Assembly: GCA_015059195.1 (NCBI GenBank)
Contig: SVAW01000001.1
Span: 145,575 to 209,574 of the forward strand
Reading direction: 5' to 3'
Source: Bacillota bacterium
GTDB lineage: Bacteria; Bacillota_I; Bacilli_A; RF39; UBA660
Length of the DNA: 64,000 nt
Made by a program: the position numbers and the translations under genes. Position 1 is the stretch's first letter; each line of letters opens with the position of its first letter. Under the pieces are notes generated by a model. That model was not told the origin of the DNA. It saw nothing but the letters and a program-made list of their open reading frames with translations, and did no database searches. This document shows, piece after piece, positions 5,014-57,650 of this stretch.

Positions 5014-5110
5014 TAAGCTGAACAAGAAATAGTAGAATTAAAATAGACAAGGGAGTAAGATAGTATGGTTAGAGTAATTACAAAAAACAAGTTAACAAAA
5101 ATAACCACCT

Positions 5111-5119
5111 GGGGGGGGG
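5111..5119 (+). repeat. G9 homopolymer inside leader uORF (copy 1)
   Basis: Counted directly: cct ggggggggg attt. Same relative position as the tracts in copies 2 and 3. Confidence 0.9.
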
Positions 5120-5154
5120 ATTTAAGTAACCATACTATAACTAGCAAAATAAAT

Positions 5155-5211
5155 AAACACGAAAGAATTTTAGAAAATCCATCGTTCTAAAATTTGTTTT
5201 CGTGTTTTTTG
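5155..5211 (+). terminator. leader intrinsic terminator, copy 1
   Basis: AAACACGAAA-g-AATTTTAGAA / loop AATCCATCG / TTCTAAAATT-tgt-TTTCGTGTTT followed by a T-run. Confidence 0.7.
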
Positions 5212-5243
5212 TATGCCTTGTTAAGAATAGGAGGAGAAAAAAA

Positions 5244-5714
5244 GAAGTAGGAGCAGAGTACAATTGTAACTTAGGAGATAGAGATAGAACATTCTATGTA
5301 TTAGAAGCAGGAACAAGTAGCAAACCAGCAACATTAATACTAGAAGGAAATTATGATATAACAGCTCAAAGCTGGACAAATGCCAACACAGTAAAATTAG
5401 ATGAAATAGCTGAAGTATGGACAGAGCTAGATAGAAGTCAACTAGGACTTCCAAGTGCTGGTCAACTTGCAGCAGCATCTAATATTTCTTTGGAGGATTT
5501 CACAAAAGGCTCACAAATTAGTAGCTGGCTATATAGTTATCCTGGCCATGAAGATTGGGTAGCTATTGGACCGGTATATGGATACTGGACATCTACTCTT
5601 GATGCAGAGAGCTCTGGCCAGGCGTATCGTGTGTATGCTGATGGGACCCCTGGTTTTGCTAATGTGGATGATGATTATATTGGGGTTCGCCCAGTAATTT
5701 TATTAGGAGTTTAA
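5244..5714 (+). pseudogene. 5'-truncated type IV pilin-like paralogue (C-terminal cassette only; no start codon, no prepilin leader)
   Basis: nt 5244-5350 differ from 32167-32273 at only ~4 positions (EVGAEYNCNLGDRDRTFYVLEAGTSSKPATLILEGNYD). The SD is retained, but the ATG of the intact copies is replaced (aggaggagaaaaaAAgaag versus aggaggagaaaaaGATGaag). The frame stays open for 156 codons and ends with the family motif GYWTST...GVRPVILLGV. The track start at 5202 is a GTG inside the terminator stem. Confidence 0.7.
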
Positions 5715-5719
5715 AAATG

Positions 5720-5744
5720 AAATGGGATTCCCCATTTTATTTTT
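5720..5744 (+). terminator. intrinsic terminator after the truncated pilin cassette
   Basis: AAATGGG-attc-CCCATTT followed by TATTTTT. Confidence 0.6.
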
Positions 5745-5772
5745 GTTTAAAATATCAAATAGATGTGATAGA

Positions 5773-6270
5773 ATGTTAATAGGGTGGTTTGAAGTGGTAG
5801 CAAACAAATTAGGAATTATAAATTATGAAAGATTAGAACAAATCGAAAATAAAATTGTTTCTGTGAAGATAGAACTATTAGATGAAAATAGTAATTTTAA
5901 TATGACTGATTTAAATTTGGAGTTTTTAATTAGGATTCATAAATTTTTGTTTGGAGATATATACTATGATGATTATCTGGCACCGCGCACACTAAATCCT
6001 GATGAATTTGAAAAAGTCCATTCAATATTTGAATTGCTAGTTCAAATAGGTGCTTTTAGACAGAATTTAGAATTAATACCGGAGCTATTTATAAGACTAT
6101 GGGAAATGCAAATATTTAGAGATGGTAACACTAGAACTCTATATGCATTTTTAAAAATCTATGTTGCTGGATATCAATTGCCAATAGAATATAAAAAAGA
6201 TTTAAATATATCATCAGGTAAAAGCTTTGTATTAAATATGTGTCAACAAAAAATAGTTGACAACATATAA
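5773..6270 (+). CDS. Fic/DOC-family-like protein with degenerate active-site motif
   Basis: IHKFLFGDIY and QIFRDGNTRTLYAFL align with the Fic core (HPFxDGNGRxxR) but with H->Q, P->I and G->T. Start is uncertain: the ATG at 5722 lies inside a terminator, so 5773 or a downstream GTG is more likely. Confidence 0.5.
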   Translation: MLIGWFEVVANKLGIINYERLEQIENKIVSVKIELLDENSNFNMTDLNLEFLIRIHKFLFGDIYYDDYLAPRTLNPDEFEKVHSIFELLVQIGAFRQNLELIPELFIRLWEMQIFRDGNTRTLYAFLKIYVAGYQLPIEYKKDLNISSGKSFVLNMCQQKIVDNI

Positions 6271-12036: not shown

Positions 12037-13086
12037 ATGACAGTTGTGTCTATGAATTATTTATTAGAAGCCGGAGTTCACTTTGGTCATCAAACTAAAA
12101 GATGGAATCCAAAAATGAAGGAATATATTTTTACTTCAAGAGATGATATTTATATTATCGATTTACAAAAAACTGCAAAGAAAATTGAAGAAGCATATGC
12201 TGCTTTAAAGGTTATTGCAGAAAATGGTGGAAAGGTTTTATTTGTTGGTACTAGAAAACAAGCTAGTGATGCAGTAAAAGAAGAAGCTCTTCGCAGTAAT
12301 TCTTATTATGTATCAGAAAGATGGTTAGGTGGTACATTAACAAACTTCAGAACAATCCGTAGAAGAGTTAAACGTCTTGAACAAATTGAAGAAATGGAAA
12401 AAAATGGAACTTTTGATTTACTTCCTAAAAAAGAAGTGATTGGATTAAAGAAAGAATATGAAAAATTAAATAAAGTGTTATGCGGTATTAGAGAAATGGC
12501 TAAATTACCAAATGCTTTATTTATAGTAGATCCATCAAAAGAATATATTGCTATTAGAGAAGCAAGAAAATTAAGAATCCCAGTATTTGGAATAGTTGAT
12601 ACTAACTGTGATCCAGACATGGTAGATTATGTTATTCCAGGAAATGATGACGCTATTCGTGCAGTTAAATTAATCACTGGTGTTATGGCTAACGCTATTG
12701 TTGAAGCACAAGGTGGAGAATTAGTTGACTATGTAAGTAGCGATGACAAAGGTAAAGACGCTAACGAAATCATGCAAAGAGCAGTTGATTCTGTAAAGAA
12801 AAGAGAACCAAGAAGACCAGAAGGAAATCGTAATTTTAATAAAAAATTTAATGATAAGAAAAAATTTGATAATAAATCATCTGAAAAAGTAGAAACTGTA
12901 AAATCTGAAAAAGAAGAAAATGCTGTTAAAGAAGAAGTTAAAACTGTTAAAGAAGAGAAAAGTGAAAAGCCAGTAGTTGATTTATCGACTAAAACAGTGG
13001 CAGAGCTTCGTGAAATGGCTAAGGATAAAGAAATTAAAGGCTATTCTACAATGAAAAAGGCTGAACTTGTAGAAGCTTTACAATAA
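12037..13086 (+). CDS. rpsB: 30S ribosomal protein S2 with ~100-aa Lys/Glu-rich C-terminal extension ending in a Rho_N/HeH-like motif
   Basis: [19 protein letters not shown] and the rest of the S2 core. The tail is [27 protein letters not shown]...[29 protein letters not shown]. Confidence 0.95.
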
Positions 13087-13141: not shown

Positions 13142-14020
13142 ATGATAAGTGCTAGTTTAGTAAAAGAATTAAGAGAAAAAACCGGAGCAGGAATGTTAGA
13201 CTGCAAAAAAGCCTTAGAGGAAAACAACGGAAATATTGAAGCTGCTATTGATTGGTTAAGAGAAAAAGGCATTTCAAAAGCTGCTAAAAAAGCTGAAAGA
13301 ATTGCTGCTGAAGGATTAGCTGCAATTTACACAGAAGGTAATGTTGCTGCAATCGTTGAAGTGAACTCAGAAACTGACTTTGTTGCTAAAAACGTTGAGT
13401 TTACTAGTATGGTTGATTCTATTTTAAAGGCAATTGTAGATAATAACCCAGAAACTACTGAAGATGTTTTAAACCTAGAAGTAGATGGACAAACAATCAA
13501 CGATTTAATTGTTGATAAAACAGCTAAAATTGGCGAAAAATTAAGCTTTAGAAGATTTACTAAAGTAACTAAAACAGATTCTGAAAACTTTGGTACATAT
13601 ATCCATATGGGGGGGAAAATTGCTGTTCTTACTATTGTGGATGGAGCAAGCGAAGAAGTTGCAAAAGAAGTTGCTATGCATGCTGCTGCAATGCGCCCTA
13701 TGTATACTAAATCAAGTGAAGTTCCTACAGAAGTATTAGAGAAAGAAAAAGCTATCATTAGAGAACAACTTTTAAATGAAGGAAAACCAGCTGATAGAAT
13801 TGATAATATTTTAGTTGGAAAAGTTAATAAATATTATGAAGATGTATGTTTAGAAAATCAAATTTTCGTTAAGGCAGAAAACAAAGAAACTGTTGCTACA
13901 TATGTTAAGAATAATGGTGGAGTTATTTCTTCAATGATTCGTTATGAAGTTGGAGAAGGAATGGAAAAACGTTCTGAAAACTTTGCTGAAGAAGTTGCTA
14001 AACAAATCGAAGGTAAATAA
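13142..14020 (+). CDS. tsf: translation elongation factor Ts
   Basis: VKELREKTGAGMLDCKKALEE UBA-like N-terminus; follows rpsB. Confidence 0.95.
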   Translation: MISASLVKELREKTGAGMLDCKKALEENNGNIEAAIDWLREKGISKAAKKAERIAAEGLAAIYTEGNVAAIVEVNSETDFVAKNVEFTSMVDSILKAIVDNNPETTEDVLNLEVDGQTINDLIVDKTAKIGEKLSFRRFTKVTKTDSENFGTYIHMGGKIAVLTIVDGASEEVAKEVAMHAAAMRPMYTKSSEVPTEVLEKEKAIIREQLLNEGKPADRIDNILVGKVNKYYEDVCLENQIFVKAENKETVATYVKNNGGVISSMIRYEVGEGMEKRSENFAEEVAKQIEGK

Positions 14021-14625: not shown

Positions 14626-14706
14626 AAAATCACCATTAATATTATAGCACATTTAAAAAAATATAAAAAACATACATATGGTATAATAAATGTGGGTGAA
14701 TGTTGT

Positions 14707-16323
14707 ATGAAAGATGAAGTTTTAGAGTCTGCCGGGTTAGTCTATTTTTATATTTGTGGCGTGATAGAAAACAAAGAAGTTCAAATGGTTACAATTGATA
14801 GTTATCGCTGTTTGGCTAATACTTTTTATGACAAAGTAAAAGAAATCTCTTTAGAAGTAGAAGAAGATGCTTATCACATTTTTGGAGTGATTGGCGATTG
14901 TAAAAAGATAGATTATATACGAAACAAGATATGTGATGGATTAAATTATAATGTTGAAAGAATAATTAATGATGAAAGAATACAAACTTCATTACCCGAA
15001 TTTGATGAGTATGGTAATAGCTTTTTTAGAGTAGTCCAAGAGTTTTTCTGCGATTATCCTGGTCATTTTCCCAGAACATTACAATTAGAACAAGAAAATA
15101 TGAGGGTATTTACCATATATATGGGAAACCCAGAGAATACTAAAAATGCTAAAGAGATAGAAACAATATTAAAATATTGGCTCTCAGGGGAAGAGATAAC
15201 AATGTTTGGAAGACAATTAATGATTCGGTCATTTTTTCTGCGCGATTTGGTCGGACGCAAAATTATAGATTGCATTCCTAATCAGATGTTATCATCTTGG
15301 AATTTATTGATAGAAGGTGGTATGAGGTTGCCTCTTGGTGAATATAACTCGTATACTAAAGAATGCGCAAATTTTAAAGAGTTAGGATGTTTCTCAATAT
15401 CTGGCATTAATGGTATGTTGATTGATCCAATTTATGGATTAGGGATTTATTTAATGCCAACAGAAATATGCATAGAATGGCACAAAGTATTTCTATTCGC
15501 GTGTTCTATTAGTAAACAGAAGTGGACTGAAGAATTGATAGAAAAAACATATTACAAGTTTTTAAGTTTTTTATGTGCTAATATTTGTATTGATTCAAGA
15601 GAAATTGATATTACCATAGATAGTAAAATCATAATCCCTAAAGACAAATATTTTGAAGTATTATTAAAACAAATTGAAACAATTAGAGGATTTTTAAAAG
15701 GAAAAGATGAATTGGTTATTTCAAAAGACTTACTACAAGTCATGAATTCAAGATATGTATATTTGCCATATATATATAGTATTGTAAATTTACATAATTT
15801 AGATAATAAAATATTTAATAAAATTGAATTCTCTAGTATGATTGAAAAGGCAGTAGTAGAAAAAGATAGTTTTCAAAAAGGTCTTCTTTGGGAAGGGGTT
15901 GCCGATTATTTTATAGAATGTGTTGATGGGTTAGAAATAAGCGCAAAAAGAATTAAAGCGGGTTTTCAAGAAATCGACTGTAGTATTGTAAATGTATCGC
16001 TTAATGATTCCTTGTGGCAACTGGGAGCGTATATTTTAGTAGAGTGTAAAAACTGGAATAGAAAGGTAGGGCTTGCCCAAATTAGAAATACTGCTTATAT
16101 TTCTAATATGAAGGGTAATAAAACTGCAATATTTATTACATCAAACGGTATTACAAAAAAAGCAAGAGAGGAAATAGAACGTTTGGTTCAAACAGGCTTA
16201 TATATTATATGCATTAATAAAAGAGACTTAAATCGTATTAGCAATAACAACGATTGCTTGGAACTTCTGTTAGATAAGTGGAGCGAATTAGACAACATAA
16301 AAAAAGAATACTTAATGATATAG
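14707..16323 (+). CDS. large uncharacterised protein with C-terminal Mrr-type (PD-(D/E)xK) restriction-endonuclease domain
   Basis: C-terminal ~130 aa: GLLWEGVADYF..EIDCSIVN..YILVECKNWNRKVGLAQIRN..AIFITSNGITKKAREE fits the Mrr_cat pattern (D...ExK, then the TT-type tail). The N-terminal ~400 aa has no motif I recognise. -10 TATAAT at ~14682. Confidence 0.6.
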   Translation: MKDEVLESAGLVYFYICGVIENKEVQMVTIDSYRCLANTFYDKVKEISLEVEEDAYHIFGVIGDCKKIDYIRNKICDGLNYNVERIINDERIQTSLPEFDEYGNSFFRVVQEFFCDYPGHFPRTLQLEQENMRVFTIYMGNPENTKNAKEIETILKYWLSGEEITMFGRQLMIRSFFLRDLVGRKIIDCIPNQMLSSWNLLIEGGMRLPLGEYNSYTKECANFKELGCFSISGINGMLIDPIYGLGIYLMPTEICIEWHKVFLFACSISKQKWTEELIEKTYYKFLSFLCANICIDSREIDITIDSKIIIPKDKYFEVLLKQIETIRGFLKGKDELVISKDLLQVMNSRYVYLPYIYSIVNLHNLDNKIFNKIEFSSMIEKAVVEKDSFQKGLLWEGVADYFIECVDGLEISAKRIKAGFQEIDCSIVNVSLNDSLWQLGAYILVECKNWNRKVGLAQIRNTAYISNMKGNKTAIFITSNGITKKAREEIERLVQTGLYIICINKRDLNRISNNNDCLELLLDKWSELDNIKKEYLMI

Positions 16324-23148: not shown

Positions 23149-23177
23149 TTGACAAACCAAACAGAAAACTATAAAAT
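23149..23177 (+). promoter_or_regulatory. sigma-A-type promoter of pilin-leader copy 2
   Basis: TTGACA 23149-23154, 17-nt spacer, TAAAAT 23172-23177. Confidence 0.6.
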
Positions 23178-23249
23178 TAAAATAGACAAGGGAGTAAGAT
23201 AGTATGGTTAGAGTAATTACAAAAATTAAATTAACAAAAATAACCACCT

Positions 23250-23259
23250 GGGGGTGGGG
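23250..23259 (+). repeat. interrupted G tract G5-T-G4 inside leader uORF (copy 2)
   Basis: Counted directly: cacct ggggg t gggg tattt. Confidence 0.9.
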
Positions 23260-23295
23260 TATTTAAGTAACCATACTATAACTAGCAAAATAAAT

Positions 23296-23352
23296 AAACA
23301 CGAAAGAATTTTAGAAAATCCATCGTTCTAAAATTTGTTTTCGTGTTTTTTT
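23296..23352 (+). terminator. leader intrinsic terminator, copy 2
   Basis: Identical hairpin to copies 1 and 3, followed by T7. Confidence 0.7.
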
Positions 23353-23384
23353 GTGTACCTTGTTAAAAATAGGAGGAGAAAAAG

Positions 23385-24266
23385 ATGAAGAAAAAAGGAT
23401 TTACACTAATTGAATTACTAGCGGTAATAGTAGTACTCGCAATAATAGCGTTAATCGCAACACTAATAGTAATGAATGTAATTAGTAATGCTTCTAAGGG
23501 AGCAGCAGAAAGAAGTGCGGATAATTATATTAAAGCAGTAGAAACATTAATCGCAACAGAAAGGTTAGAAGGAAACAAAATAGCAGATGGTACTTATACA
23601 ATCGGGACAGATGGAAATCTTCAATTTGAAACTGTGGAGTTGAGCGGAATAAAACCAAGTGGAGGAACAATCACAATTAAAGATGGACAAGTAGTTAAAG
23701 AAAAGACCTCAATTATCGTGGGAAATTATACTGTTACTTTTGAAAACGGAAATGCAAAAGCTAAAGAGTTAGCTAAACTAGATGATTTATGTAATTTGGA
23801 AGTTGTAACACATGAGGTAGGGGCAGAATACACCTGTGACTTAGGAGACGGACATAATAGAATATTCTACGTATTAGAAGCAGGAACAAGCAGTAGACCG
23901 GCAACATTAATATTAGAAAATAACTTTGATACTGGGGGATCTCATGGTTGGACAGGAGTGGAACAAACGCTATATGACATATCGATGGCTTGGCCAAAAT
24001 TAGATAGAAGCCAAATAGGAGTGCCAAGTGTTGAGCAAATAATGGTAGCGGATGGAAAAGCTGCAGATGCTTATTTAAACAACGAGTCCGAAGATGTGCA
24101 TTTAGAGAATGATTGGCTATATGATTTTCAAGAAAGAGTAGGCTATTGGACATCTAGCCTTGATGGTTATGATGGTGCTTGGCTTATCTTTTCAAATGGT
24201 GAAGTTGGTACGGCTCCATTGACAGATAAGCATGAGGTTAGACCAGTAATTAGGTTGGCTCTTTAA
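23385..24266 (+). CDS. type IV pilin/pseudopilin-like protein (prepilin N-terminal cleavage/methylation motif) with variable C-terminal YWTS...VRPV domain
   Basis: MKKKGFTLIELLAVIVVLAIIALIA has Gly-1, Phe+1 and Glu+5. The C-terminus GYWTSS...HEVRPVIRLAL resembles DUF1566/C-type-lectin-like tails. Paralogue of 31722-32636. Confidence 0.8.
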   Translation: MKKKGFTLIELLAVIVVLAIIALIATLIVMNVISNASKGAAERSADNYIKAVETLIATERLEGNKIADGTYTIGTDGNLQFETVELSGIKPSGGTITIKDGQVVKEKTSIIVGNYTVTFENGNAKAKELAKLDDLCNLEVVTHEVGAEYTCDLGDGHNRIFYVLEAGTSSRPATLILENNFDTGGSHGWTGVEQTLYDISMAWPKLDRSQIGVPSVEQIMVADGKAADAYLNNESEDVHLENDWLYDFQERVGYWTSSLDGYDGAWLIFSNGEVGTAPLTDKHEVRPVIRLAL

Positions 24267-29776: not shown

Positions 29777-30727
29777 ATGATTACTTTTAATGAAATTAAT
29801 AAACATGGAATTATTGAACTAGTTAGGGAACATAAGTTTGAATTACATAAAACAATAGGGTTAGATAGCAAATATACTTTTGGTATTGAAATAGAATTTG
29901 AAAAGGCTCCGCTAGATAGCCTAAAAAATACTGGGCATTGGAAATTAGAAGATGAGACGGTTATTTCAAAAAACACAGTCAGTCAAACCTGTGGAGGAGA
30001 ACTTGTTAGTCCCATTTTAACCGACAATCCAAATAGTTGGTTAGAAATTCAAGCAATGTGTAGTGAGTTAGTTAACAATGGTGCAGTAACCTCTGAGTAT
30101 ACTGGTGGGCATATACATATTGGTTCACAAATAATAGGGTCAAACCCAGACAATATTAGAATATTTTTAAAAATGTGGGAATTATTTGAAAGAGAGATTT
30201 ATTATTTTTCTTATGGATATGATGATAGAGCGAGATTAGGCGTTGATAGGTATGCAAAGCCAGTAGGGAAACAATTAAATCGATTGAGAACTAGCAAAAC
30301 CGGATATAATCGTTTTACAACCTTTTACTGTTGGATGAATTATTTCAGAACTCATTATACGGCCAAGTTTGAAGGAGTTAGCTTTAAAAACTTTCGTGGA
30401 TGTGAAATGGATGAGGGTAATACAATAGAAATAAGATGCCCTAATGGCACCTTAAATCCTATAATATGGCAAAACAATGTAAACTTTTTTACTCGTTTAA
30501 TGTTAAGTTGCCGGGCAGACAAGGTTGATGAACAATTGCTAGATTACTTATTGTTTAAAAAGAAATCCAGTGATCTTTGTTTTGAAAATTTTAATATCCC
30601 AGATATTGGTCAAGCAGTTTTATTTAGCAATATGATATATGATGATGAAATAGAACAATTAACGTTTTTAAAGCAATGTTTAAAATTATTTACAGAAGAT
30701 GAAAAAAACAAGAATTATTCACTATGA
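29777..30727 (+). CDS. putative amidoligase (glutamine-synthetase-like, Amidoligase_2 family)
   Basis: Motif series FGIEIEFE, GGELVSPIL, YTGGHIHIG, NTIEIRCPNGTLNP matches the family pattern GxExEf / ElvSp / GlHvHv / tiEfR..gT. Extended -10 TGtGATAAT upstream. The 3' end overlaps sigK by 13 nt, in convergent orientation. Confidence 0.5.
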   Translation: MITFNEINKHGIIELVREHKFELHKTIGLDSKYTFGIEIEFEKAPLDSLKNTGHWKLEDETVISKNTVSQTCGGELVSPILTDNPNSWLEIQAMCSELVNNGAVTSEYTGGHIHIGSQIIGSNPDNIRIFLKMWELFEREIYYFSYGYDDRARLGVDRYAKPVGKQLNRLRTSKTGYNRFTTFYCWMNYFRTHYTAKFEGVSFKNFRGCEMDEGNTIEIRCPNGTLNPIIWQNNVNFFTRLMLSCRADKVDEQLLDYLLFKKKSSDLCFENFNIPDIGQAVLFSNMIYDDEIEQLTFLKQCLKLFTEDEKNKNYSL

Positions 30728-31416
30728 TTCTTGTTTTTTATAAACTCTCTTAGAAGTTTGGTTAAAGCTCTTTTTTCAATTCTAGAAACATAACTTCTGG
30801 AAATTCCTAAATCATTCGCAATATCTTTTTGGGTTGCTTCATCTTGATTGTCTAGTCCATATCTTTTTATAATAATCTTTTTTTCTTGTTCTGTTAACAC
30901 GTTAAAATAGTTCTTTAATAAAGAAATATTATCTTTTGTATGAATGTCCATCGCAAAATCTGGCTTAGGAGTTTTTAAAATATCTAAAAAAGTTATTTCA
31001 TTACCGTCTTTATCAAAACCAATTGATTCGTTAATACTCACATTCTTATTATTTTTTTTGTTATTTCGATAATACATTAATATTTCATTTTCAATACATC
31101 TTGCACAATAGGTAGTTATTCTAGTTCCATGTTTATATGAATATGAATCAATACCTTTGATAAGACCGATAGTTCCAATACTTATTAAATCATCTGTATC
31201 ATCTTTTTTAGTATCATATTTTTTTACAATATGAGCAACTAGTCTCAAGTTGTGTTCAATTAATTTAGCTCGCGCATCTTTATCCCCAACTTTAGCTAGT
31301 TCAATATATCTATCTTCTTCTTCTTTGGAAAGGGGATCAGGAAACAAATTATTCGAGTAAGCAGCACTAAAAATGTAAAAGTCTTTAAACAAAAATTTTA
31401 AAATTTTTTTAAACAT
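30715..31416 (-). CDS. sigK: sporulation sigma factor SigK (pro-sigma-K), uninterrupted
   Basis: SNNLFPDPLSKEEEDRYIEL, ARAKLIEHNLRLVAHIVKKY, DLISIGTIGLIKGIDSY, CARCIENEILMYYR and GISRSYVSRIEKRAL closely follow B. subtilis SigK. A CATACAcT motif (mother-cell -10-like) lies at 31434-31441 on the - strand. Confidence 0.85.
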   Translation of the reverse strand: MFKKILKFLFKDFYIFSAAYSNNLFPDPLSKEEEDRYIELAKVGDKDARAKLIEHNLRLVAHIVKKYDTKKDDTDDLISIGTIGLIKGIDSYSYKHGTRITTYCARCIENEILMYYRNNKKNNKNVSINESIGFDKDGNEITFLDILKTPKPDFAMDIHTKDNISLLKNYFNVLTEQEKKIIIKRYGLDNQDEATQKDIANDLGISRSYVSRIEKRALTKLLREFIKNKNHSE

Positions 31417-31487: not shown

Positions 31488-31516
31488 TTGACAAAATGAA
31501 CTAATAATTATAAAAT
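31488..31516 (+). promoter_or_regulatory. sigma-A-type promoter of pilin-leader copy 3
   Basis: TTGACA 31488-31493, 17-nt spacer, TAAAAT 31511-31516. Confidence 0.6.
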
Positions 31517-31587
31517 TAAAATAGACAAGGAGTAAGATAGTATGGTTAGAGTAATTACAAAAAACAAGTTAACAAAAATAACCAGCT

Positions 31588-31596
31588 GGGGGGGGG
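31588..31596 (+). repeat. G9 homopolymer inside leader uORF (copy 3)
   Basis: Counted directly: cagct ggggggggg tattt. Confidence 0.9.
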
Positions 31597-31632
31597 TATT
31601 TAAGTAACCATACTATAACTAGAAAAATAAAT

Positions 31633-31690
31633 AAACACGAAAGAATTTTAGAAAATCCATCGTTCTAAAATTTGTTTTCGTGTTTTTTTG
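31633..31690 (+). terminator. leader intrinsic terminator, copy 3
   Basis: AAACACGAAA-g-AATTTTAGAA / AATCCATCG / TTCTAAAATT-tgt-TTTCGTGTTT plus T7, ending ~30 nt before the pilin ATG. Confidence 0.7.
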
Positions 31691-31721
31691 TGTACCTTGT
31701 TAAAAATAGGAGGAAAGAAAG

Positions 31722-32636
31722 ATGAAAAAAAGAGGATTTACACTAATTGAATTACTAGCGGTAATAGTAGTACTAGCAATAATAGCGTTAATCGCAACAC
31801 CAATAGTAATGAATGTAATTAGTAATGCACAAAAAGGAGCAGCAGAAAGAAGTGCAGATAACTACGTAAAAGCAGTAGAAACATTAATTGCAACAGAAAG
31901 ATTAGATGGAGAACCAGTAGAGGATGGGACATATGAAATTGATGAAAACGGAAATCTTAAATCTGGTGATATTGAACTTACAGTTGAGTTAAATGGAACA
32001 AAACCAAGTGGAGGAAGTATTGAAATTAAAGATGGACAAGTAGTTAAAAATGAAAGTTCAATTAAGGTAGGAGATTATACAGTAGTCTATAAAGATGGAG
32101 CAGCATCTATTAAAGAATTAGCCAAACTATTAGATGTATGTGAGTTAACAGATGGAGAAGACAATGAAGTAGGAGCAGAGTACAATTGTAACTTAGGAGA
32201 TAGAGATAGAACATTCTATGTATTAGAAGCAGGAACAAGTAGTAAACCAGCAACATTAATATTAGAAGGTAACTATGATACAGAAACGTTAGTGTGGTGT
32301 GTAAGCAAATTTGACAATTCTTGCCAAGCAGAGGGGCCAAATGCTAAACTAGATGCTATAGCCAAAAATTCATGGACTAAACTAGATAGAAGTCAAATAG
32401 GAATACCAAGTGCAAGTCAAATTGTAGTAGCAGATGGAAAAGAGGCCGATGCTTATTTAGAGGCTCCTGATTTAGATAACGAGTGGCTATATGGTGATGA
32501 TTATTGGACATCTACACCTTATACTGGTGACTTAGATAACGTGTGGTATGTTGATTTTAACGGTAGTATGAATTTAGGCATAATTGTTGATGACAGCACG
32601 TGTGGTGTTCGACCAGTAATTTTATTAGACGTCTAA
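31722..32636 (+). CDS. type IV pilin/pseudopilin-like protein with variable C-terminal YWTS...VRPV domain
   Basis: MKKRGFTLIELLAVIVVLAIIALIA prepilin motif. First ~70 aa are ~90 percent identical to 23385-24266. Central block VGAEYNCNLGDRDRTFYVLEAGTSSKPATLILEGNYD is shared with the 5244 cassette. C-terminus DYWTST...CGVRPVILLDV. Confidence 0.8.
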   Translation: MKKRGFTLIELLAVIVVLAIIALIATPIVMNVISNAQKGAAERSADNYVKAVETLIATERLDGEPVEDGTYEIDENGNLKSGDIELTVELNGTKPSGGSIEIKDGQVVKNESSIKVGDYTVVYKDGAASIKELAKLLDVCELTDGEDNEVGAEYNCNLGDRDRTFYVLEAGTSSKPATLILEGNYDTETLVWCVSKFDNSCQAEGPNAKLDAIAKNSWTKLDRSQIGIPSASQIVVADGKEADAYLEAPDLDNEWLYGDDYWTSTPYTGDLDNVWYVDFNGSMNLGIIVDDSTCGVRPVILLDV

Positions 32637-32722: not shown

Positions 32723-34162
32723 ATGAAAAAAATAGTTTTTAGTGTTTTTGTGTTTTTAGGACTGATCTATAATATTTCTGCTCAAGAGGTTTATTATTCC
32801 AATTATAGTGAATCAAGAATCTGTTCTACTGAAAATCAAGAATCGTCGGAATTGATAAATGTAGAAGCAGAAAGAAGATATAGATTTTATAGTAATCACG
32901 AGAAAGGAGAATATCATAGTTTATTAGAAGAGAATTCGGGATTTCAATTTGTAGATTTGGATAAAAAAATAGATAGTGAGTATAGCTCTTGGAGTACAGA
33001 AATTCCATTAAATGTAGAAAAACGTGTTATTGAGACTAAAGTTATATATAGTGTAAAACGTCCCAAGCCAATTAAAAATTTTTATATTACAAATACCGGA
33101 GATACTAATATAATTCTAGATAATATAGAAATTTATTTCGACGGGAAAAGTGTTGCTTATAAATCTTCAACAGATTTGGTAGGAGAGCAATATATTATTC
33201 AGAGTGGAGATTATCTAAAATTGAGTTTAAATAGTTATTACGACTTACAAAAAATTATAATTAAAATTGATGAAGCTAATTTTTCACAAGATAATGAACT
33301 TCATATTTCTGCAACAGTTCCTTCTAGCGACGGAACATATTATATCAGCTATTTTAGAGTTAATTTAGATAATACTAATAATAAAAATATTGTGATTTCT
33401 GCGCGCGATTGGATTAGAACGAATGCTCAATATGATGATGAAATCATTTTGGAATATAATCCGGATGAGCCACTATCCATTCTTTCAGAGACAAAATATT
33501 ATCGTTACCAGGATCCAGCATTTTACTTTTATAATATTTATAAAGATTATATAGATGGATATTTTAATGAATATTCGGAATTTATTAAAGATGAAAACGA
33601 TTTTTTAGATTTTTATTGTATTAGAACGAGAGAAAAATTCGAAATAGCAAAAGAAGTAGAAATCGTCGATTATAATCAGAAAATATCAGATTTTATAAAC
33701 TCTACAGTAAATTATACAGTAAAAGGTGATTTTAATATGTATAAAAATGGTATATATTCATTAGAATTTATTACAGATTTTATAACTCTAAAGAAGAATG
33801 TTGTTGTAAATATTAAAGAAAATCTATTACACAATTGTGATAACCAATGTGAAGATATGCGAAAAAATTTAGACGAAACTAACGGAAAATATGAGCAAAG
33901 TATTGAAAAACTAGAAAAATTAAAAATTGAAAATAATAAATTAATTCAAGATATCAACAATTTGTCACAAGTTAATGATATTTTAAGACAAGAACTGAGG
34001 TGTAAAATATGTAGTCTTAACTTAAAAAGTGAAAATCTAAAAACTGATGATGTTAATGCAATAGATAAAGCAAATATAGTATGTTTAGCCCTGATAGTTT
34101 TAGTATTGATAGTATTACTGCTAATTTTTTTGAAAAATTTGTCTAATAAAAATAAGTTCTAA
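32723..34162 (+). CDS. secreted, C-terminally membrane-anchored protein with coiled-coil segment (unknown function)
   Basis: Signal peptide MKKIVFSVFVFLGLIYNISAQE; heptad-rich region (KYEQSIEKLEKLKIENNKLIQDINNLSQVNDILRQEL); C-terminal TM IVCLALIVLVLIVLLLIFL. Confidence 0.6.
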   Translation: MKKIVFSVFVFLGLIYNISAQEVYYSNYSESRICSTENQESSELINVEAERRYRFYSNHEKGEYHSLLEENSGFQFVDLDKKIDSEYSSWSTEIPLNVEKRVIETKVIYSVKRPKPIKNFYITNTGDTNIILDNIEIYFDGKSVAYKSSTDLVGEQYIIQSGDYLKLSLNSYYDLQKIIIKIDEANFSQDNELHISATVPSSDGTYYISYFRVNLDNTNNKNIVISARDWIRTNAQYDDEIILEYNPDEPLSILSETKYYRYQDPAFYFYNIYKDYIDGYFNEYSEFIKDENDFLDFYCIRTREKFEIAKEVEIVDYNQKISDFINSTVNYTVKGDFNMYKNGIYSLEFITDFITLKKNVVVNIKENLLHNCDNQCEDMRKNLDETNGKYEQSIEKLEKLKIENNKLIQDINNLSQVNDILRQELRCKICSLNLKSENLKTDDVNAIDKANIVCLALIVLVLIVLLLIFLKNLSNKNKF

Positions 34163-34224: not shown

Positions 34225-34572
34225 TTGCTAAATATAGGCTATGAATTTCGAAAAGGAATACTATTTATTCGTCTTAGCGGTGTTTTAACTAAGAACACTG
34301 TTGATAAACTCCAAAATGAGGTCACTGATATGATAAAAGATAATGGTATTCGCAATGTTGTATTCAATATTAGTGATTTAAATGTTATTGATATTAAGGG
34401 AATTAATAGTTTGCTCTATAATTATGAACTTTGTAAAAATAATCAAGGTCAAAGCTTACTGTGTGGTCTTAAAAATTCTTTAGTAAGACATAGAATTGAA
34501 AATAGTAGATTATTAAAATATATGAATGAAACGAGTGATGAATTAAGTGCATTTAATATAATAAATTTATAA
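34225..34572 (+). CDS. spoIIAA: STAS-domain anti-sigma-factor antagonist (SpoIIAA-like) lacking the phospho-acceptor serine
   Basis: Aligns along its length with B. subtilis SpoIIAA (ILFIRLSGVL / VLCIRLTGEL). The DSSG motif is DIKG here (34390-34401). TTG start with SD GAGGTGA. Confidence 0.7.
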   Translation: MLNIGYEFRKGILFIRLSGVLTKNTVDKLQNEVTDMIKDNGIRNVVFNISDLNVIDIKGINSLLYNYELCKNNQGQSLLCGLKNSLVRHRIENSRLLKYMNETSDELSAFNIINL

Positions 34573-34582
34573 GGAGAAAAAT

Positions 34583-35248
34583 ATGGACGAAGAATTAGCT
34601 AGACTAATTAAGGAAAATGAAAAATTAATTCACAAAATCACACACTTATTTAGTAATTATTCTAGCAAAGAAGATTTGTTTCAAGTTGGATGCATTGGTT
34701 TAATTAAAGCTTATAATAATTATAGAGAAGGATTTAATACTAGGTTTTCTACATATGCATATTCATATATTTTAGGGGAGATTAAAAAATATATTAGAGA
34801 AGATAAAGGTATAAAAATAAGTAGAGATATTACAAAGCTTAATCTAAAAATTGAAAAGGCCTATTTAGTATTAGCACAAAGATTAATGCGAGAACCAAGT
34901 AAGCAAGAGCTAGCAGAATATTTGGGAATAGCAGAATATTATATAAATGAGGCTATGTGTGCTAACCATGTTTTACAAAGTTTAGATGAACCGATTGCAA
35001 GTGATTCTAAGGAGTTAACTCTTTATGATACTGTATCACGAGTAGAGTCTATGGACATGGATACTTTAATAGCTTTAAAAAGGGAGCTTGCTTTATTAGA
35101 CAAATCGGATTATCAAATTATTAGCGAACATTACTTACAAGATAAAAGTCAAAGTGAAATTGCAGAAAACATGGGACTAAATCAAGTACAAATATCACGT
35201 CGAGAGCAAAAGATTTTATCAAAACTAAAAAATAGACTAGCAGCTTAA
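34583..35248 (+). CDS. sigF: sporulation sigma factor SigF-like (group 3, SigF/SigG/SigB clade)
   Basis: DLFQVGCIGLIKAYNNY, RFSTYAYSYILGEIKKYIRED and GLNQVQISRREQKIL. Located 10 nt after the spoIIAA-like gene. Confidence 0.75.
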   Translation: MDEELARLIKENEKLIHKITHLFSNYSSKEDLFQVGCIGLIKAYNNYREGFNTRFSTYAYSYILGEIKKYIREDKGIKISRDITKLNLKIEKAYLVLAQRLMREPSKQELAEYLGIAEYYINEAMCANHVLQSLDEPIASDSKELTLYDTVSRVESMDMDTLIALKRELALLDKSDYQIISEHYLQDKSQSEIAENMGLNQVQISRREQKILSKLKNRLAA

Positions 35249-42509: not shown

Positions 42510-42544
42510 ATGTTAATTTATGTTATAATTAATTGGGTGATATT

Positions 42545-44074
42545 ATGTCAGACCAAAAAGGAAGTTTGAAAGATAGATTGCGTTCTTGGAATATATTTTT
42601 AAGATATCGCTTAAACGTAGCTAAGAAAAAACAACAAGAAAAAAATAGAAAAAAAGCTATTAAAAGAGAAGAACAGAAAAGAGTACAAATGGTTGCAAGT
42701 GGCAAATACTATAGTAAACCTAAAATATTTGGAATAACTCTTGTTGGACTATTTTTTGGAATCTTTGAGAGCAAGATAGATAAACATGCTAAGATAGAAC
42801 AACTGGAATCTGAAATTAATGATTTGGATCAAAATATTAATAAAATAAATAGTGATAAAGAATTCAGAGACCTAGAGAAAAGAATAGTAATTATAAAATC
42901 TAAAAACAGATTCAATGATTCTATTATCCAACGATTAAATGCCTGTGGAATAAAATTAGAGAATATTAAAAGAAAACAAGTTCCCACAAATAAACGTGAA
43001 CGTGAATTAGGTCAGATGGATAAAAATGCTTTAAGCGCAGTATATACTCCTGTTTTAGAAATCAAAGTAATGAATAAGGAATTAAAGGGGTATAATAAAA
43101 AGCTTAAGGAAATAAACGCTAAAATTAAGGCTACTACAGCATATAACAGTTTATACGAGTTGGAATTTGAAATAAAACAATTAAAGATTAAAATTAATGA
43201 TTTATTGAATAAATATCATAACCTTAAAGAATTACCTGGATTTGATAATTTACAGAATGTTTTAGATATTTCAGAAATAGATTTGTTAGAATTAAGGTTT
43301 AATGCCAACTCGATTAATGCCCAAATAAAAATGTGTAATGAGTCCTTAGACGATATAGAGCAGAGGCGAAAACAGTTATTAGAACCAAAAATTAAAACTA
43401 AAGGTGCGCCTGAAAAGGATAAAAAGAAGGAAAAACACGAAAAAAAGAAAAACGAAGAAAAAAAGCAAGAATCCAAAAATGATGATAAATTATTGGAAGT
43501 TAAACTTGCTCAAAAAATTGTTTTAGATAGATTGATAATTGAGCAAAAGAATATCGAAAGGTTTCAAAAAAACTTGGTAAAGATGACTGTAAAAAAAAGA
43601 AGAAAGAGTATTCTTTCTTATGCTGGAGGAATTTTATCATCTATTATAAATTTTGGGTTAAGTTTATTTCCGATATCGTTGTTTAAAAATAAATTGATTG
43701 GTGGGCTTGTTAGTGGAATCATGGTTAATAATTCATTAAAGAGTATTAGAAAGGTATTGACACCAGAAACGGATACTGTTTATATTTTATTTAGTGATTT
43801 CGAAAAAGAATTATATAAAACTGAGGACTATCTAAACAGTATGGGATATATATGCAGTGATTCACTAAATCAAATAAACGAAATTAGATCTACCCTTGAT
43901 CATCAATATGGAAATGATATAGAATATAGTGATTTAATATCAAAATATTTACGAGATTTAGATCAAGTAGAAGCACAAATCCTAGCTGAACAAGAGATGA
44001 TTATGAATATGCAAGAGCAAATAACAGAGACAAAAGTAAGTAATAAACAAAAAATAAAAGATTTATATAATTAG
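42545..44074 (+). CDS. membrane-associated coiled-coil protein (unknown function)
   Basis: Basic N-terminus, TM ITLVGLFFGIF, long heptad-rich Lys/Glu region, second hydrophobic block ILSYAGGILSSIINFGLSLFPISLF. Confidence 0.55.
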   Translation: MSDQKGSLKDRLRSWNIFLRYRLNVAKKKQQEKNRKKAIKREEQKRVQMVASGKYYSKPKIFGITLVGLFFGIFESKIDKHAKIEQLESEINDLDQNINKINSDKEFRDLEKRIVIIKSKNRFNDSIIQRLNACGIKLENIKRKQVPTNKRERELGQMDKNALSAVYTPVLEIKVMNKELKGYNKKLKEINAKIKATTAYNSLYELEFEIKQLKIKINDLLNKYHNLKELPGFDNLQNVLDISEIDLLELRFNANSINAQIKMCNESLDDIEQRRKQLLEPKIKTKGAPEKDKKKEKHEKKKNEEKKQESKNDDKLLEVKLAQKIVLDRLIIEQKNIERFQKNLVKMTVKKRRKSILSYAGGILSSIINFGLSLFPISLFKNKLIGGLVSGIMVNNSLKSIRKVLTPETDTVYILFSDFEKELYKTEDYLNSMGYICSDSLNQINEIRSTLDHQYGNDIEYSDLISKYLRDLDQVEAQILAEQEMIMNMQEQITETKVSNKQKIKDLYN

Positions 44075-47539: not shown

Positions 47540-47596
47540 TAATTGACATAACATATTATTAATTGTAGAATAAAATCTTAATGAGGAGTGATCTTA

Positions 47597-48508
47597 GTGG
47601 GACGAATAGAAAGTGTTTTTGATAATTATACTTCTAGATTTTTATCTGAAAATGATAATAAAGCGGGTTATGCAGATAAATATAATCATTCTTATTTTGT
47701 CATGCAGGAATCTTTGTTGGTAGATCAAACTTTTACTCAATATAATACAAGCTTTCAAGAACTTTTAAAAATACAAAGTTTATATCATGATATTGGAAGA
47801 TTTCTTCAGTTAAAGTTGGTGGGGAGCTTTTCTGATTACGCTTTGTCACAGCGGTTAACTGGTATTTGTGATCATGGAGATTTGGGTTCAACCATTATGC
47901 ATGATGAGCTGTTAAGAGAACTATTTCCTAAAGATAATATTTTTGATGAAGAAATTGCTAAAGTTATAAGATTACATACTAAAGATAATAAAGGTCTTTT
48001 AAAATTTATAAAAAGAGAGCTTATTGAACGATTTAAAAATTATGATTTAAGGGATCTATTTGTTTCGCAAAAATCTGGTCAAGAAAGGACAGCTTTAACC
48101 GCAGTAAATACTGCAATTATTCAAGACGCTGACAGATTAGATATTTTTAGAAAAATAGTAAATAGAATTTGGGTTCCCAATGTTAGTCATGAAAATATCC
48201 ATGAGCAGGTGTGGAGCTGGTTTTATGAAGGGAACCTACCATCTATTAACGAGCTAAAGAAAATGGGATATTGGAATGCGAATGTGGGACATTTGATTAG
48301 AATGAACTTTATCAATCAGATGTACTTAGTTCCGGAATTGCAAAAAATTCGCGATGAACAATTAATTCAGAGAGTTTATACTGTGAGTGGCAATGAAATA
48401 GTAAAACCTGCATATGATTTTGCCATTGAAAAACTAGATAGTTTAATTGATGAAAGTGAAGATAAAATATTAGTCAAAAAAAGGTATACTGGTGAATCAA
48501 TCGGTTAA
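47597..48508 (+). CDS. HD-domain phosphohydrolase-like protein
   Basis: LYHDIGRF (HD) and QDADRLD motifs. SD GAGGAG before GTG 47597. Confidence 0.6.
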   Translation: MGRIESVFDNYTSRFLSENDNKAGYADKYNHSYFVMQESLLVDQTFTQYNTSFQELLKIQSLYHDIGRFLQLKLVGSFSDYALSQRLTGICDHGDLGSTIMHDELLRELFPKDNIFDEEIAKVIRLHTKDNKGLLKFIKRELIERFKNYDLRDLFVSQKSGQERTALTAVNTAIIQDADRLDIFRKIVNRIWVPNVSHENIHEQVWSWFYEGNLPSINELKKMGYWNANVGHLIRMNFINQMYLVPELQKIRDEQLIQRVYTVSGNEIVKPAYDFAIEKLDSLIDESEDKILVKKRYTGESIG

Positions 48509-54184: not shown

Positions 54185-54278
54185 CAAACTCGAAAAAAAT
54201 GATACAATATATACCGACAACGAGATACTGACCATAAAATGGCGGAAATTTGACAAAAATTAATATTTATGTTAGTAT
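54181..54278 (+). promoter_or_regulatory. tandem sigma-A-type promoters plus conserved box upstream of 54310 gene
   Basis: P1 is TTGACA 54181-54186 with TGaTACAAT 54200-54208. The box ATATACCGACAACGAGATA lies at 54209-54227. P2 is TTGACA 54250-54255, 17 nt, TGtTAGTAT 54270-54278. The same architecture occurs at 57744-57842. Confidence 0.45.
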
Positions 54279-54309
54279 AGACGCCAACAAATCAAAAGGG
54301 GGATTTAAT

Positions 54310-55692
54310 ATGTACGAAGAAAGAGAAAGATTTTCAGTTAGAGACGTAATATTACAAATTATTTTAGTAGTATTATTTGTATTCTTATTATTGTGGTTGT
54401 TTCCAACCAAAAGTTATGTAGATAACAAAGTGGGAAACACTTTAAACCCAATAAATCAACAGTTGTTCTCACAAAACATTAATACAATGAAAGAAGCTGC
54501 AACTAGTTATTTTACAACATCTAGATTACCAAAAAATATTGGTGATAAAGAAACATTAACACTAGGAGATATGTTAGATAAGAAATTATTAATACCATTC
54601 TTAGATAGTAATAATAATCAATGTAGTTTGACAGAATCTTATGTAGAAATTACTAAGATGGATGACGAATACATTTTAAAGGTAAATCTAAGTTGTAGTG
54701 ATAATAGTGACTATATTTTAGTTCATCTAGGATGCTATAGTTACTGTGAAAATGGATTATGTGAGAAACAAGAGGAGACCAAACCAGTAGTAAAACCAAC
54801 AATTACTCAAAAATACAAATATGAATATGAATTAGTAACTAATGGTAAATGGGGAGAATGGTCAAGTTGGTCAAATTGGTCTAAAGTTAAAGTAGACAAA
54901 ACTGATTATCGTAATGTTAAAACTAAAAATGAAAAAGTAATAACTGGTACAGAAACTATTAAAGTTGGTACAGAAACAATTACAAAAGATGCTAAGGAAA
55001 ATGTTAATTACTATTGTCCTAAAGGATACACGAGAGAAGGAACACGTTGTACTCGTCCAGTTACAAAAACTGAGACAATTGACGCTACAAAAAATGCAAA
55101 AGATAATTGTCCAAGTGGATATACTTTGAATGGCAATGAATGTAGTAAAGAAGTTACTTATTTATCTTCTTATAAAAAAGGTGACTATGTAAAAACAGTT
55201 TATAATGCATCTAGTGTTCCAAAAGATACAAACAAATATTTTTATAAAGAAGTTGGGGCTGACTACGTTTATGCTTGTGAAGGAAGTTGTGCTTTCAAAT
55301 GGGTATACACATATGAAGTTTATAAATCAACTCCAGTTTACAAAACAAAAGTTGAAACAGTTGCAAAAAACACAACAACAACATACAGTTGTCCAAGTGG
55401 ATATACATTAAGTGGAACAAAATGTAATAAACAAGTTACAACAACTCAAACAATAAATGCATCAAAAAATGTTACATATAGTTGTGATGCTGGTGAATTA
55501 TCTGGTAAAAGCTGTATAACATATAAAGATAAATATGAAACAATTAATATATATGAAACAGTGACATACTATAGCTATCAAGAAAGAAAATATATTTCTG
55601 GAGAGCGCAAAATAGTATGGAGTACTACCAAAAACGATACAAAATTAATTGAGCAAGGTTACAAGTTGACTGGCAAAACACAAAAAATATAA
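54310..55692 (+). CDS. N-terminally anchored extracytoplasmic protein with Trp-ladder and repeated Cys-hairpin modules
   Basis: SD AAGGGGGA. TM DVILQIILVVLFVFLLLWLF. WGEWSSWSNWS motif. Repeats YYCPKGYTREGTRC / NCPSGYTLNGNEC / YSCPSGYTLSGTKC / YSCDAGELSGKSC are separated by T-rich linkers. Confidence 0.6.
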   Translation: MYEERERFSVRDVILQIILVVLFVFLLLWLFPTKSYVDNKVGNTLNPINQQLFSQNINTMKEAATSYFTTSRLPKNIGDKETLTLGDMLDKKLLIPFLDSNNNQCSLTESYVEITKMDDEYILKVNLSCSDNSDYILVHLGCYSYCENGLCEKQEETKPVVKPTITQKYKYEYELVTNGKWGEWSSWSNWSKVKVDKTDYRNVKTKNEKVITGTETIKVGTETITKDAKENVNYYCPKGYTREGTRCTRPVTKTETIDATKNAKDNCPSGYTLNGNECSKEVTYLSSYKKGDYVKTVYNASSVPKDTNKYFYKEVGADYVYACEGSCAFKWVYTYEVYKSTPVYKTKVETVAKNTTTTYSCPSGYTLSGTKCNKQVTTTQTINASKNVTYSCDAGELSGKSCITYKDKYETINIYETVTYYSYQERKYISGERKIVWSTTKNDTKLIEQGYKLTGKTQKI

Positions 55693-57476: not shown

Positions 57477-57561
57477 TGGTGCGAGTGAAGGGACTTGAAC
57501 CCCCATGCCGTAAGGCGCTAGATCCTAAGTCTAGTGCGTCTGCCAATTTCGCCACACTCGC
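57477..57561 (-). tRNA. tRNA-Leu (anticodon UAG), CCA encoded
   Basis: Reverse complement is GCGAGTGTGGCGAAATTGG...CTAGA-CTTAGGA-TCTAG...long variable arm...GGTTCAAGTCC...CACTCGCACCA. It has a 7-bp acceptor stem and a class II variable arm. Confidence 0.9.
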
Positions 57562-57573
57562 AATAAAATAAAG

Positions 57574-57650
57574 TGGTGGACCCTGTAGGACTCGAACCTA
57601 CGACCGCCCGGTTATGAGCCGGATGCTCTAACCAACTGAGCTAAGGGTCC
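57574..57650 (-). tRNA. tRNA with CAU anticodon, elongator type; probably tRNA-Ile2 (lysidine) rather than Met
   Basis: Reverse complement is GGACCCTTAGCTCAGTTGGTTAGAGCA-TCCGG-CTCATAA-CCGGG-CGGTC-GTAGGTTCGAGTCCTAC-AGGGTCCACCA. The body resembles Bacillus tRNA-Ile(CAU) as I remember it. There are no initiator features. Confidence 0.85.

Follow-up and report, generated by a model that had tools for sequence, protein, structure and literature searches.

Phase variation of pili through a leader peptide and a terminator is known from Streptococcus gallolyticus, in which the pil1 and pil3 loci have a leader-peptide gene with GCAGA repeats, followed by a transcription terminator (Danne et al. 2014, PMC3894217). 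In pil1, an out-of-frame change in the repeats extends the peptide into or past the hairpin and raises transcription about 11-fold, and the ATG/ribosome-binding site, three-stop and terminator-deletion mutants fit the attenuator model (PMC3894217). Natural isolates of S. gallolyticus in which the peptide ends 28 or more nucleotides (nt) upstream of the hairpin are mostly low in expression, and switching occurs at a rate of about 5 x 10^-3 per cell and generation (PMC3894217). Here, a leader of similar layout is described from a stretch of 64,000 nt (the window) of a Bacillota bacterium of the lineage RF39/UBA660 (assembly GCA_015059195.1, contig SVAW01000001.1, positions 145,575 to 209,574 of the forward strand), in which a prepilin-type gene starting at 31722 is preceded by a short upstream open reading frame (uORF) that contains a run of nine G (G9) and by a predicted intrinsic terminator. 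It is proposed, as the probable reading and with moderate confidence, that this leader and its homologs are a convergent poly-G version of the phase-variable leader-peptide attenuator, serving as a stochastic on/off switch for prepilin-type genes. The original prediction, made from the sequence of the window, had held that a slipped-strand switch acting through a leader-peptide frame on termination was undescribed; this was wrong, as the mechanism has been proven for pil1 and pil3 (PMC3894217). Further literature searches returned no other example of the combined mechanism.

The likeness to pil1 and pil3 includes the order of the parts, namely a promoter, the Shine-Dalgarno (SD) sequence and ATG of a leader ORF with a simple-sequence repeat, a terminator (a predicted one here) and a promoterless pilus gene, as well as the effect of a change in repeat number, which shifts the frame and sets the end of the peptide either before the hairpin or in or past it. 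The short-peptide stops lie about 28-39 nt before the hairpin in S. gallolyticus, with low expression, and 25-29 nt before the stem here, both hosts are Firmicutes, and both have several pilus loci per genome with the same device. Judged by its sequence, the present leader has every feature of the pil1/pil3 design, with the terminator as a predicted one. However, no leader sequence is shared and the GCAGA array is absent here, and this lack of homology points to an origin independent of pil1. The two also differ in the repeat (a G9-G11 homopolymer here, 13-22 GCAGA pentamers in S. gallolyticus), in the controlled genes (single prepilin-type, type IV-like genes here, sortase-pilus operons in S. 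gallolyticus) and in the on-phases, predicted to be one frame in three here, whereas in pil1 both out-of-frame classes lengthen the peptide. Additionally, the present leader has a helix enclosing the uORF start and the tract (P1) and a long-range pairing (P0), and its copies, mosaic among themselves, are many more per genome than in S. gallolyticus.

In the pyrBI and trp-type attenuators of Escherichia coli, a ribosome on the leader peptide close behind the polymerase physically blocks the terminator. Those systems sense a metabolite via the rate of transcription or of translation, whereas what is read here is a genetic input, the tract length. The trp system, which is also discussed in PMC3894217, relies on an antiterminator hairpin, of which there is none here. 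Moraxella catarrhalis uspA1 has a poly-G tract in the 5' untranslated region, 3' of the transcription start of this adhesin gene, and the tract length alters the mRNA level; the placement of poly-G between transcription start and a surface gene is shared with the present leader, and uspA1 is not known to involve a uORF or a terminator. Poly-G contingency loci also include the G tracts of Campylobacter jejuni (PMC11955535) and Neisseria pilC, lgt and pgtA (PMC2192423, PMC2193922). Similarly to these, the present tracts are G8-G11 in an AT-rich genome, belong to genes for surface structures and set a frame by one G more or less. In Campylobacter and Neisseria, however, the structural gene itself harbors the tract, which truncates its protein, while here the tract lies in a separate leader ORF and would act on termination, leaving the structural gene intact in every phase.

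The leader copy ahead of the 31722 gene (copy A, 31488-31721) has the following features:
31488 to 31516, + strand: sigma-A-type promoter (TTGACA, 17 nt, TAAAAT), matching at 11 of 12 positions and kept in homologous leaders.
31524 to 31532, + strand: left arm of P0 (GACAAGG) at the transcript's 5' end, overlapping the uORF SD AAGGAG (31527-31532); invariant in 13 leaders.
31537 to 31548, + strand: left arm of P1, ATAGTATGGTTA, which includes the uORF AUG; without covariation, two variants breaking one pair each.
31542 to 31607, + strand: leader uORF as read with the present G9, 21 codons (MVRVITKNKLTKITSWGGVFK) and TAA.
31588 to 31596, + strand: G9 homopolymer, the proposed slipped-strand switch.
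31598 to 31616, + strand: conserved TATTTAAGTAACC block and right arm of P1 (31605-31616).
31633 to 31689, + strand: predicted intrinsic terminator, with stem 31633-31685, a 9-nt loop at 31654-31662 and U7 at 31683-31689.
31695 to 31701, + strand: putative right arm of P0 (CCTTGTT), invariant across the leaders.
31708 to 32636, + strand: SD AGGAGG and prepilin-type gene (ATG 31722, 304 amino acids (aa)), with a Pfam N_methyl match and a type IV pilin-like N-terminus.

Transcription of copy A probably starts near 31523, and the ATG at 31542 stands 9 nt 3' of AAGGAG. Both early stops, TAA 31601-31603 and TAA 31605-31607, are carried in two different frames by the TATTTAAGTAACC/P1 region, and the long-frame stop, TAA 31666-31668, sits in the 3' arm of the terminator. 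A promoter scan of copy A found no promoter between the terminator and the pilin ATG at 31722, nor room for one. Most of this anatomy had been read correctly in the original prediction: the promoter, the SD and the uORF ATG are where it had placed them, its 12-bp helix (31537-31548 with 31605-31616) appears in the minimum-free-energy fold, its hairpin with T7 at 31633-31689 is predicted to fold at -19.1 kcal/mol (z = -5.6), and its hand translations were right (21 aa with G9, 20 aa with G10, and 41 or 42 aa with G8 or G11, ending at TAA 31666-31668). The 31722 protein has a class III N-terminal signal with a G/FTLIE motif and a hydrophobic alpha-1 helix (MKKRGFTLIELLAVIVVLAIIALIATP), and its residues 2-60 align with the solved PilE, MshA and PilA. 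Pilin-type proteins of this kind form a large family, found mostly in metagenome-assembled genomes (MAGs) called Firmicutes bacterium. Genes for a prepilin peptidase, a PilB ATPase and a PilC platform were absent within the 64-kb window.

In the proposed mechanism, a strong sigma-A-type promoter would yield an RNA opening with the SD and AUG of a short ORF, which crosses an A-rich spacer into the G tract, and replication slippage by one G more or less would reset the frame in which the ribosome leaves it. In two frames, the ribosome would halt at a TAA in TATTTAAGTAACC, 25-29 nt ahead of the terminator stem; the hairpin with U7 would then form, transcription would end after about 165 nt, and the promoterless pilin gene would be off or low. 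In the third frame, the ribosome would pass the 5' arm and the loop and stop either in the 3' arm, as in the lineage of the window, or after the U run, as on the related contigs L001 and L047; trailing the polymerase, it would block the hairpin, and transcription would reach the pilin gene. Tracts interrupted by T or A would be locked alleles. The predicted state of the 31722 pilin, with its G9 and 21-aa peptide, is off or low. How efficiently the terminator acts, how ribosomes bring about read-through and what P1 and P0 do are inferred parts of this model. Its basis is the polymorphism of the tract between samples, a conserved ORF with a conserved arrangement of stops, a predicted and covarying terminator, and the lack of an antiterminator.

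The window, at 29% GC, has two G runs of at least 8 nt, both in leaders, against 0.013 expected in 64 kb, which bears out the earlier remark that a G9 is very unusual in such AT-rich DNA. Its longest C run is at most 5 nt, and its A or T runs, at 71% A+T, are all at most 8 nt. Apart from these, the one long G run is a G7 at 13609-13615 in the EF-Ts gene, which is constant between assemblies. In the regions compared across contigs, the longest homopolymers are likewise the G tracts, with A/T runs of at most 8 nt. The tract alleles among orthologous and paralogous leaders include G8, G9, G10, G11, G5TG4, G4TG5 and G5AG5, and orthologous loci from different metagenomes differ in length as follows:
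L035, L036 and L041 against L039: G11 against G10, with 6,436 aligned bp, 0 mismatches and the tract as the sole indel.
L042 against L044: G9 against G8, with 11,212 bp, 1 mismatch and the tract as the sole indel.
L037 against L045 and L040: G10 against G11, the L037 and L045 leaders being otherwise identical and the L040 leader mosaic.

All of this variation comes from short-read metagenome assemblies, in which the repeated leader is often a place where contigs end or switch partner. This would speak for the length differences being sequencing or assembly errors at a long homopolymer, with no phase variation. This explanation is quite improbable, since independent assemblies agree on particular lengths (7 with G9, 4 with G11 and, at the P0006 locus, 3 with G9), the tract is the sole indel across 6-11 kb, and only uninterrupted tracts vary, the longest most often, as slippage predicts. 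The interrupted tracts are constant, with G5TG4 in 5 assemblies and G5AG5 in 4. A rise of variation with tract length and its arrest by interruptions fit slippage as the cause, and replication slippage would thus lie behind the changes in the tract.

The SD and ATG of the uORF are invariant in the 13 leaders, while the spacer from ATG to tract is A-rich and strongly diverged and changes in length by non-multiples of 3. Despite this, the 10 distinct interior variants have 0 stops before the tract in the ATG frame, against 24 and 17 in the other frames. By shuffling, the probability of an open ATG frame is 0.28-0.50 per interior and about 0.02 jointly for the 4-5 or so independent types, and the counts indicate that the uORF frame is maintained open. 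The sequence of the leader peptide is unconserved, which is usual for peptides of this kind. Beyond the tract, frames 0 and 2 reach a TAA at +6 and +2 in the invariant TATTTAAGTAACC and have 2-5 stops each, whereas frame 1 is open to +67 in all variants of the window's lineage, where its TAA falls in the 3' arm of the terminator. The same frame, in L001 and L047, remains open across the entire terminator and ends at a TAA or TAG just after CCTTGT. The early stops lie 25-29 nt ahead of the terminator stem, in agreement with the claim that an out-of-phase ribosome would be released at least 25 nt upstream of the terminator, and the expected geometry of homologous leaders (the ATG, two early stops and an open third frame) is kept in a second lineage, whose terminator has diverged with covariation.

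When the long form of the peptide was used as a query, 8 clusters only were returned, from about 80 contigs, so that long-frame alleles exist in nature. The same 8 clusters in the protein database, together with the annotation of the long form as a 40-42-aa gene by gene callers on several contigs and a stop within the terminator, as in many small genes, could also suggest an independent small gene, whose 40-42-aa peptide or small RNA of about 165 nt would vary in phase while the pilin was expressed by leaky read-through or from another promoter. This is improbable: the peptide is unconserved upstream of the tract, P1 and the terminator account for its conservation downstream, and two of the three frames give peptides of 18-21 aa with unrelated C-termini. 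Moreover, the module is always fused to a prepilin gene, which in the window copies is promoterless.

The terminators of the leaders are predicted to fold at -19 to -26 kcal/mol, with z-scores of -5.6 to -7.6. A simple terminator scanner made no call for the hairpin of copy A, which with its U7 is strong by folding. The stem has 3 compensatory pairs in an alignment of 13 sequences, and the stems of L001 and L047 are of different sequence with compensatory changes. Masked folding found no upstream partner for the 5' arm of the terminator, the energy being the same with or without the arm available, and this agrees with the earlier observation that there is no alternative antiterminator pairing. 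In the same folding model, a ribosome footprint placed at the early stops leaves the hairpin intact, while the hairpin is lost when the footprint covers the 5' arm or the late stop. The remaining options for defeating the terminator are occlusion by the ribosome and by a trans-acting protein.

In the latter case, the attenuator would be real but would yield to a trans-acting factor or to a physiological signal, for instance an antiterminator protein that binds RNA or NusG-like processive antitermination, with the tract and uORF incidental and the indels neutral. The lack of a cis antiterminator fits protein-mediated read-through as well as the ribosome-mediated kind, high conservation is shown by P1, P0 and the loop AUCCAUC, none of which has a role in the ribosome model, and the G9 of the window is invariant in 7 assemblies. 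Nevertheless, this alternative is unlikely, as it leaves unexplained the stop-free ATG frame next to frames full of TAA, the one open post-tract frame across two diverged terminators, and the keeping of a 9-11-nt G run at 29% GC where other homopolymers are at most 8 nt; furthermore, the loop motif is lost in L047.

A helix (P1) followed by a terminator is also the typical architecture of a riboswitch, and the terminator-type c-di-GMP-II riboswitch that precedes pilA1 in Clostridioides difficile is a precedent for one at a pilin gene. In a ligand- or tRNA-sensing RNA of this type, P1 would close an aptamer and the G-rich segment would belong to the binding core, for example as a CCACC/GGUGG hairpin, and the T-interrupted tracts do form a perfect CCACC-UGGG-GGUGG or CCCACC/GGUGGG hairpin. 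The tract, however, varies in length and one interruption is an A, which breaks that hairpin; the A-rich interior shows little conservation and differs in length between leaders, the P1 domain folds with weak z-scores only (-0.7 to -2.9), and the terminator has no competitor and thus no expression platform. In Rfam, the whole window at gathering threshold matched only transfer RNAs (tRNAs), and the leader at E <= 10 had only chance microRNA-like matches, which scored below gathering level, and no family match. Without an Rfam match or an antiterminator, and with a variable interior, a riboswitch is very improbable, in line with the original prediction, which had argued against a classical one. 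The comparison of the leaders neither supports nor refutes P1 and P0, which are invariant or show mismatches only.

P0 is an invariant 7-bp long-range pairing, GACAAGG/CCUUGUU, of 31524-31530 with 31695-31701, which is also present in copies B and C of the leader (below) and in all homologs. It can form in read-through transcripts only, where it may be a 5' stabiliser or an occluder of the uORF SD; P1, in turn, may be an occluder of the AUG or a pause element. Sequestration of the pilin SD by CCUUGU was rejected, as the motif is kept where the SD lies about 100 nt further downstream, and CCUUGU more plausibly pairs with the 5' end than with the pilin SD. Other pairings that were considered and rejected include the G run as one side of a conserved CCACC/GGUGG hairpin, in view of the A.G mismatch that pure tracts produce and of the A-interrupted tract of L047, and the terminator loop AUCCAUC with the G run, because the loop is unconserved in L047.

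Two further copies of the leader are in the window:
23149 to 23384, + strand: leader copy B, with promoter 23149-23177, uORF 23204-23266 (20 aa) and terminator 23299-23352.
5010 to 5236, + strand: leader copy C, with promoter 5010-5038 (TTGATA, 17 nt, TAGAAT) and terminator 5158-5210 (U6).
5202 to 5714, + strand: 5'-truncated pilin paralog, C-terminal domain only, fused directly to leader copy C.

The three copies of the original prediction all exist, as does its G9 in copy C (5111-5119), where the following T is missing; copy B instead has an interrupted tract, GGGGGTGGGG at 23250-23259 (G5TG4), and the claim of a pure G9 in every copy did not hold. Apart from this and the claim of novelty, its central chain, from tract phase through uORF frame to a ribosome on the terminator, agreed with every computational test run. 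Copy B precedes the pilin gene 23385-24266 and is identical across 5 assemblies, and the predicted state of this pilin is locked off or low. The uORF of copy C (5065-5190) has 41 aa and, lacking the T after G9, is already in the long frame, such that the predicted state of the truncated copy at 5202 is on. About the first 147 codons of this pilin are missing; it corresponds to residues 149-304 of the 31722 gene product. The copy C and 31722 pilins are 48% identical, the first 38 aa of the truncated one being nearly identical. The fusion is without the N-terminal helix and without an ATG, its junction lies in a segment 96% identical to 32163-32280, and either a pseudogene or a silent recombination cassette could be the explanation. 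It is followed by a Fic/DOC gene (5722-6270). Thus the window has one leader copy in each of the three frames. The copies are mutually 88-94% identical, about 130 nt of coding sequence included, and as recent paralogs they are not independent evidence, which was drawn from leaders on other contigs.

On contigs encoding members of the pilin family, 14 distinct and 3 partial homologous leaders were recovered. These belong to two lineages, the species group of the window and a second one with L001 and L047-L050. A 44%-identical pilin from human gut samples (L005-L007) has no leader, which restricts the device to a sub-clade. Searches with the leader patterns AATAGACAAGG/ATAGACAAGG...TTTAAGTAAC gave only random matches in collections without this lineage (4 of 4 among metagenome contigs and 13 of 13 among genome contigs), and the 1 match in viral contigs was random as well; for the pilin homologs P0002 and P0005, no encoding contigs were on record. 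From the chance-only pattern matches and the 8 peptide clusters, the device looks confined to a narrow clade.

Junctions between leader and pilin are switched among these contigs. The same upstream neighbor is found with different pilins through the leader (IPPT-leader-P0035 or IPPT-leader-P0045, in L037, L045 and L040), and the same pilin with different neighbors (EzrA or sigG upstream of P0025, in L042, L043 and the window at 31488). Also, the L040 leader combines the L037 and L035 types in a mosaic, the crossover being near the tract, and L003 and L004 have an identical pilin behind very different leader interiors. The switched junctions reflect either real recombination at the repeat of about 300 bp or chimeric assemblies. 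About 100 extra nt are present between CCTTGTTA and the pilin SD in L035 (9908-10000), L042 (9909-10000), L045 (9908-10000) and L047 (8800-8904), with the conserved blocks AAAAAATGTAAA, TATATAC...GTATA inverted repeats and ATATACAAAATAATATATACTGAA.

A broader scheme, offered tentatively and with more doubt than confidence, is that at least 8-10 scattered prepilin-type genes each have their own poly-G attenuator, and that the module of promoter, leader and N-terminus, about 300 bp long, is also a recombination site that swaps pilin cassettes from locus to locus, giving rise to mosaic leaders and truncated silent copies. Phase and antigenic variation would then be combined in a commensal, independently of S. 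gallolyticus, and the AUG-containing P1 would synchronise ribosome and polymerase.

Several points weigh against the leader being such a phase-variable attenuator. The evidence consists entirely of sequence comparison and predicted folding, and the ORF statistics draw on about 4-5 independent interiors, because the leaders represent only two lineages, close relatives of each other, and recombination homogenises them. The locus of the window itself has G9 in 7 of 7 assemblies, the variation in the tract is between consensus assemblies of different samples and not at the level of reads, and homopolymer miscalls may account for part of the length differences. P1 and P0 are without covariation in the 13-sequence alignment; in the predicted fold, P1 pairs over the uORF AUG, and initiation at the uORF may be inefficient since the AUG is buried. 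The insert of about 100 nt may be a second regulatory element or a promoter that bypasses the switch. Lastly, transcription and translation are reported to be largely uncoupled in Bacillus subtilis, which would weaken a model in which the ribosome follows the polymerase, an objection softened by S. gallolyticus, which shows that the mechanism can work in a Firmicute.

The window is a chromosomal segment of a spore-forming Firmicute, with gene content that includes spoIIGA-sigE, sigG, spoIIAA-sigF, ftsAZ, murBG and ribosomal protein genes. MAGs labelled Bacilli bacterium and Candidatus Fimihabitans intestinipullorum have an FtsZ about 87% identical to that of the window. Leader-pilin modules recurrently adjoin sporulation genes, both in the window (22416-23141/23385, 30715-31416(-)/31722 and 34225-35248) and on L001, L035, L042 and L047, being located after spoIIGA-sigE, divergent from sigG, near spoIIAA-sigF, or before spoVAC/D/E, spoIIIAH-gerE-gerM and SASP genes. 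They nonetheless have sigma-A-like promoters, and their siting may be coincidence or a matter of preferred insertion sites. Two adjacent tRNA genes (57480-57650, - strand) are the only Rfam gathering-level matches of the window. Ribosomal protein S2 (12037-13086, 349 aa) has a C-terminal Rho_N domain (E = 4e-10), and ribosomal protein L20 on the related contig L032 (16029-16589) likewise bears Rho_N. The gene for an Mrr-like restriction endonuclease (Mrr_cat, 14692-16323) has a 2-nt (CA) deletion at 14981-14982 in one otherwise identical assembly (L028 1599), which gives ORFs of 98 aa and 407 aa and lies outside any repeat. ORFs of 306-513 aa without a Pfam match include 54250-55692, 32723-34162, 42533-44074, 47588-48508 and 57876-58811; the 480-aa ORF without a Pfam match has an internal 61-nt repeat, 79% identical at a spacing of 282 nt, with a CPSGYT-like motif.

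If the proposed reading is true, these leaders would be a second, independently evolved case of phase variation by leader peptide and terminator, suggesting a recurrent solution rather than a streptococcal curiosity. They would also bring three firsts for such switches, namely a homopolymer tract as the repeat, prepilin-type genes as the target and an uncultured gut commensal as the host. Because the structural gene is intact in every phase, scans for repeats inside coding genes or promoters miss switches of this kind, for which an SD and ATG, a repeat, two closed frames and one open frame, and a terminator provide a searchable signature. With many such loci per genome, the switch would give gut Firmicutes a combinatorial variation of their surface.

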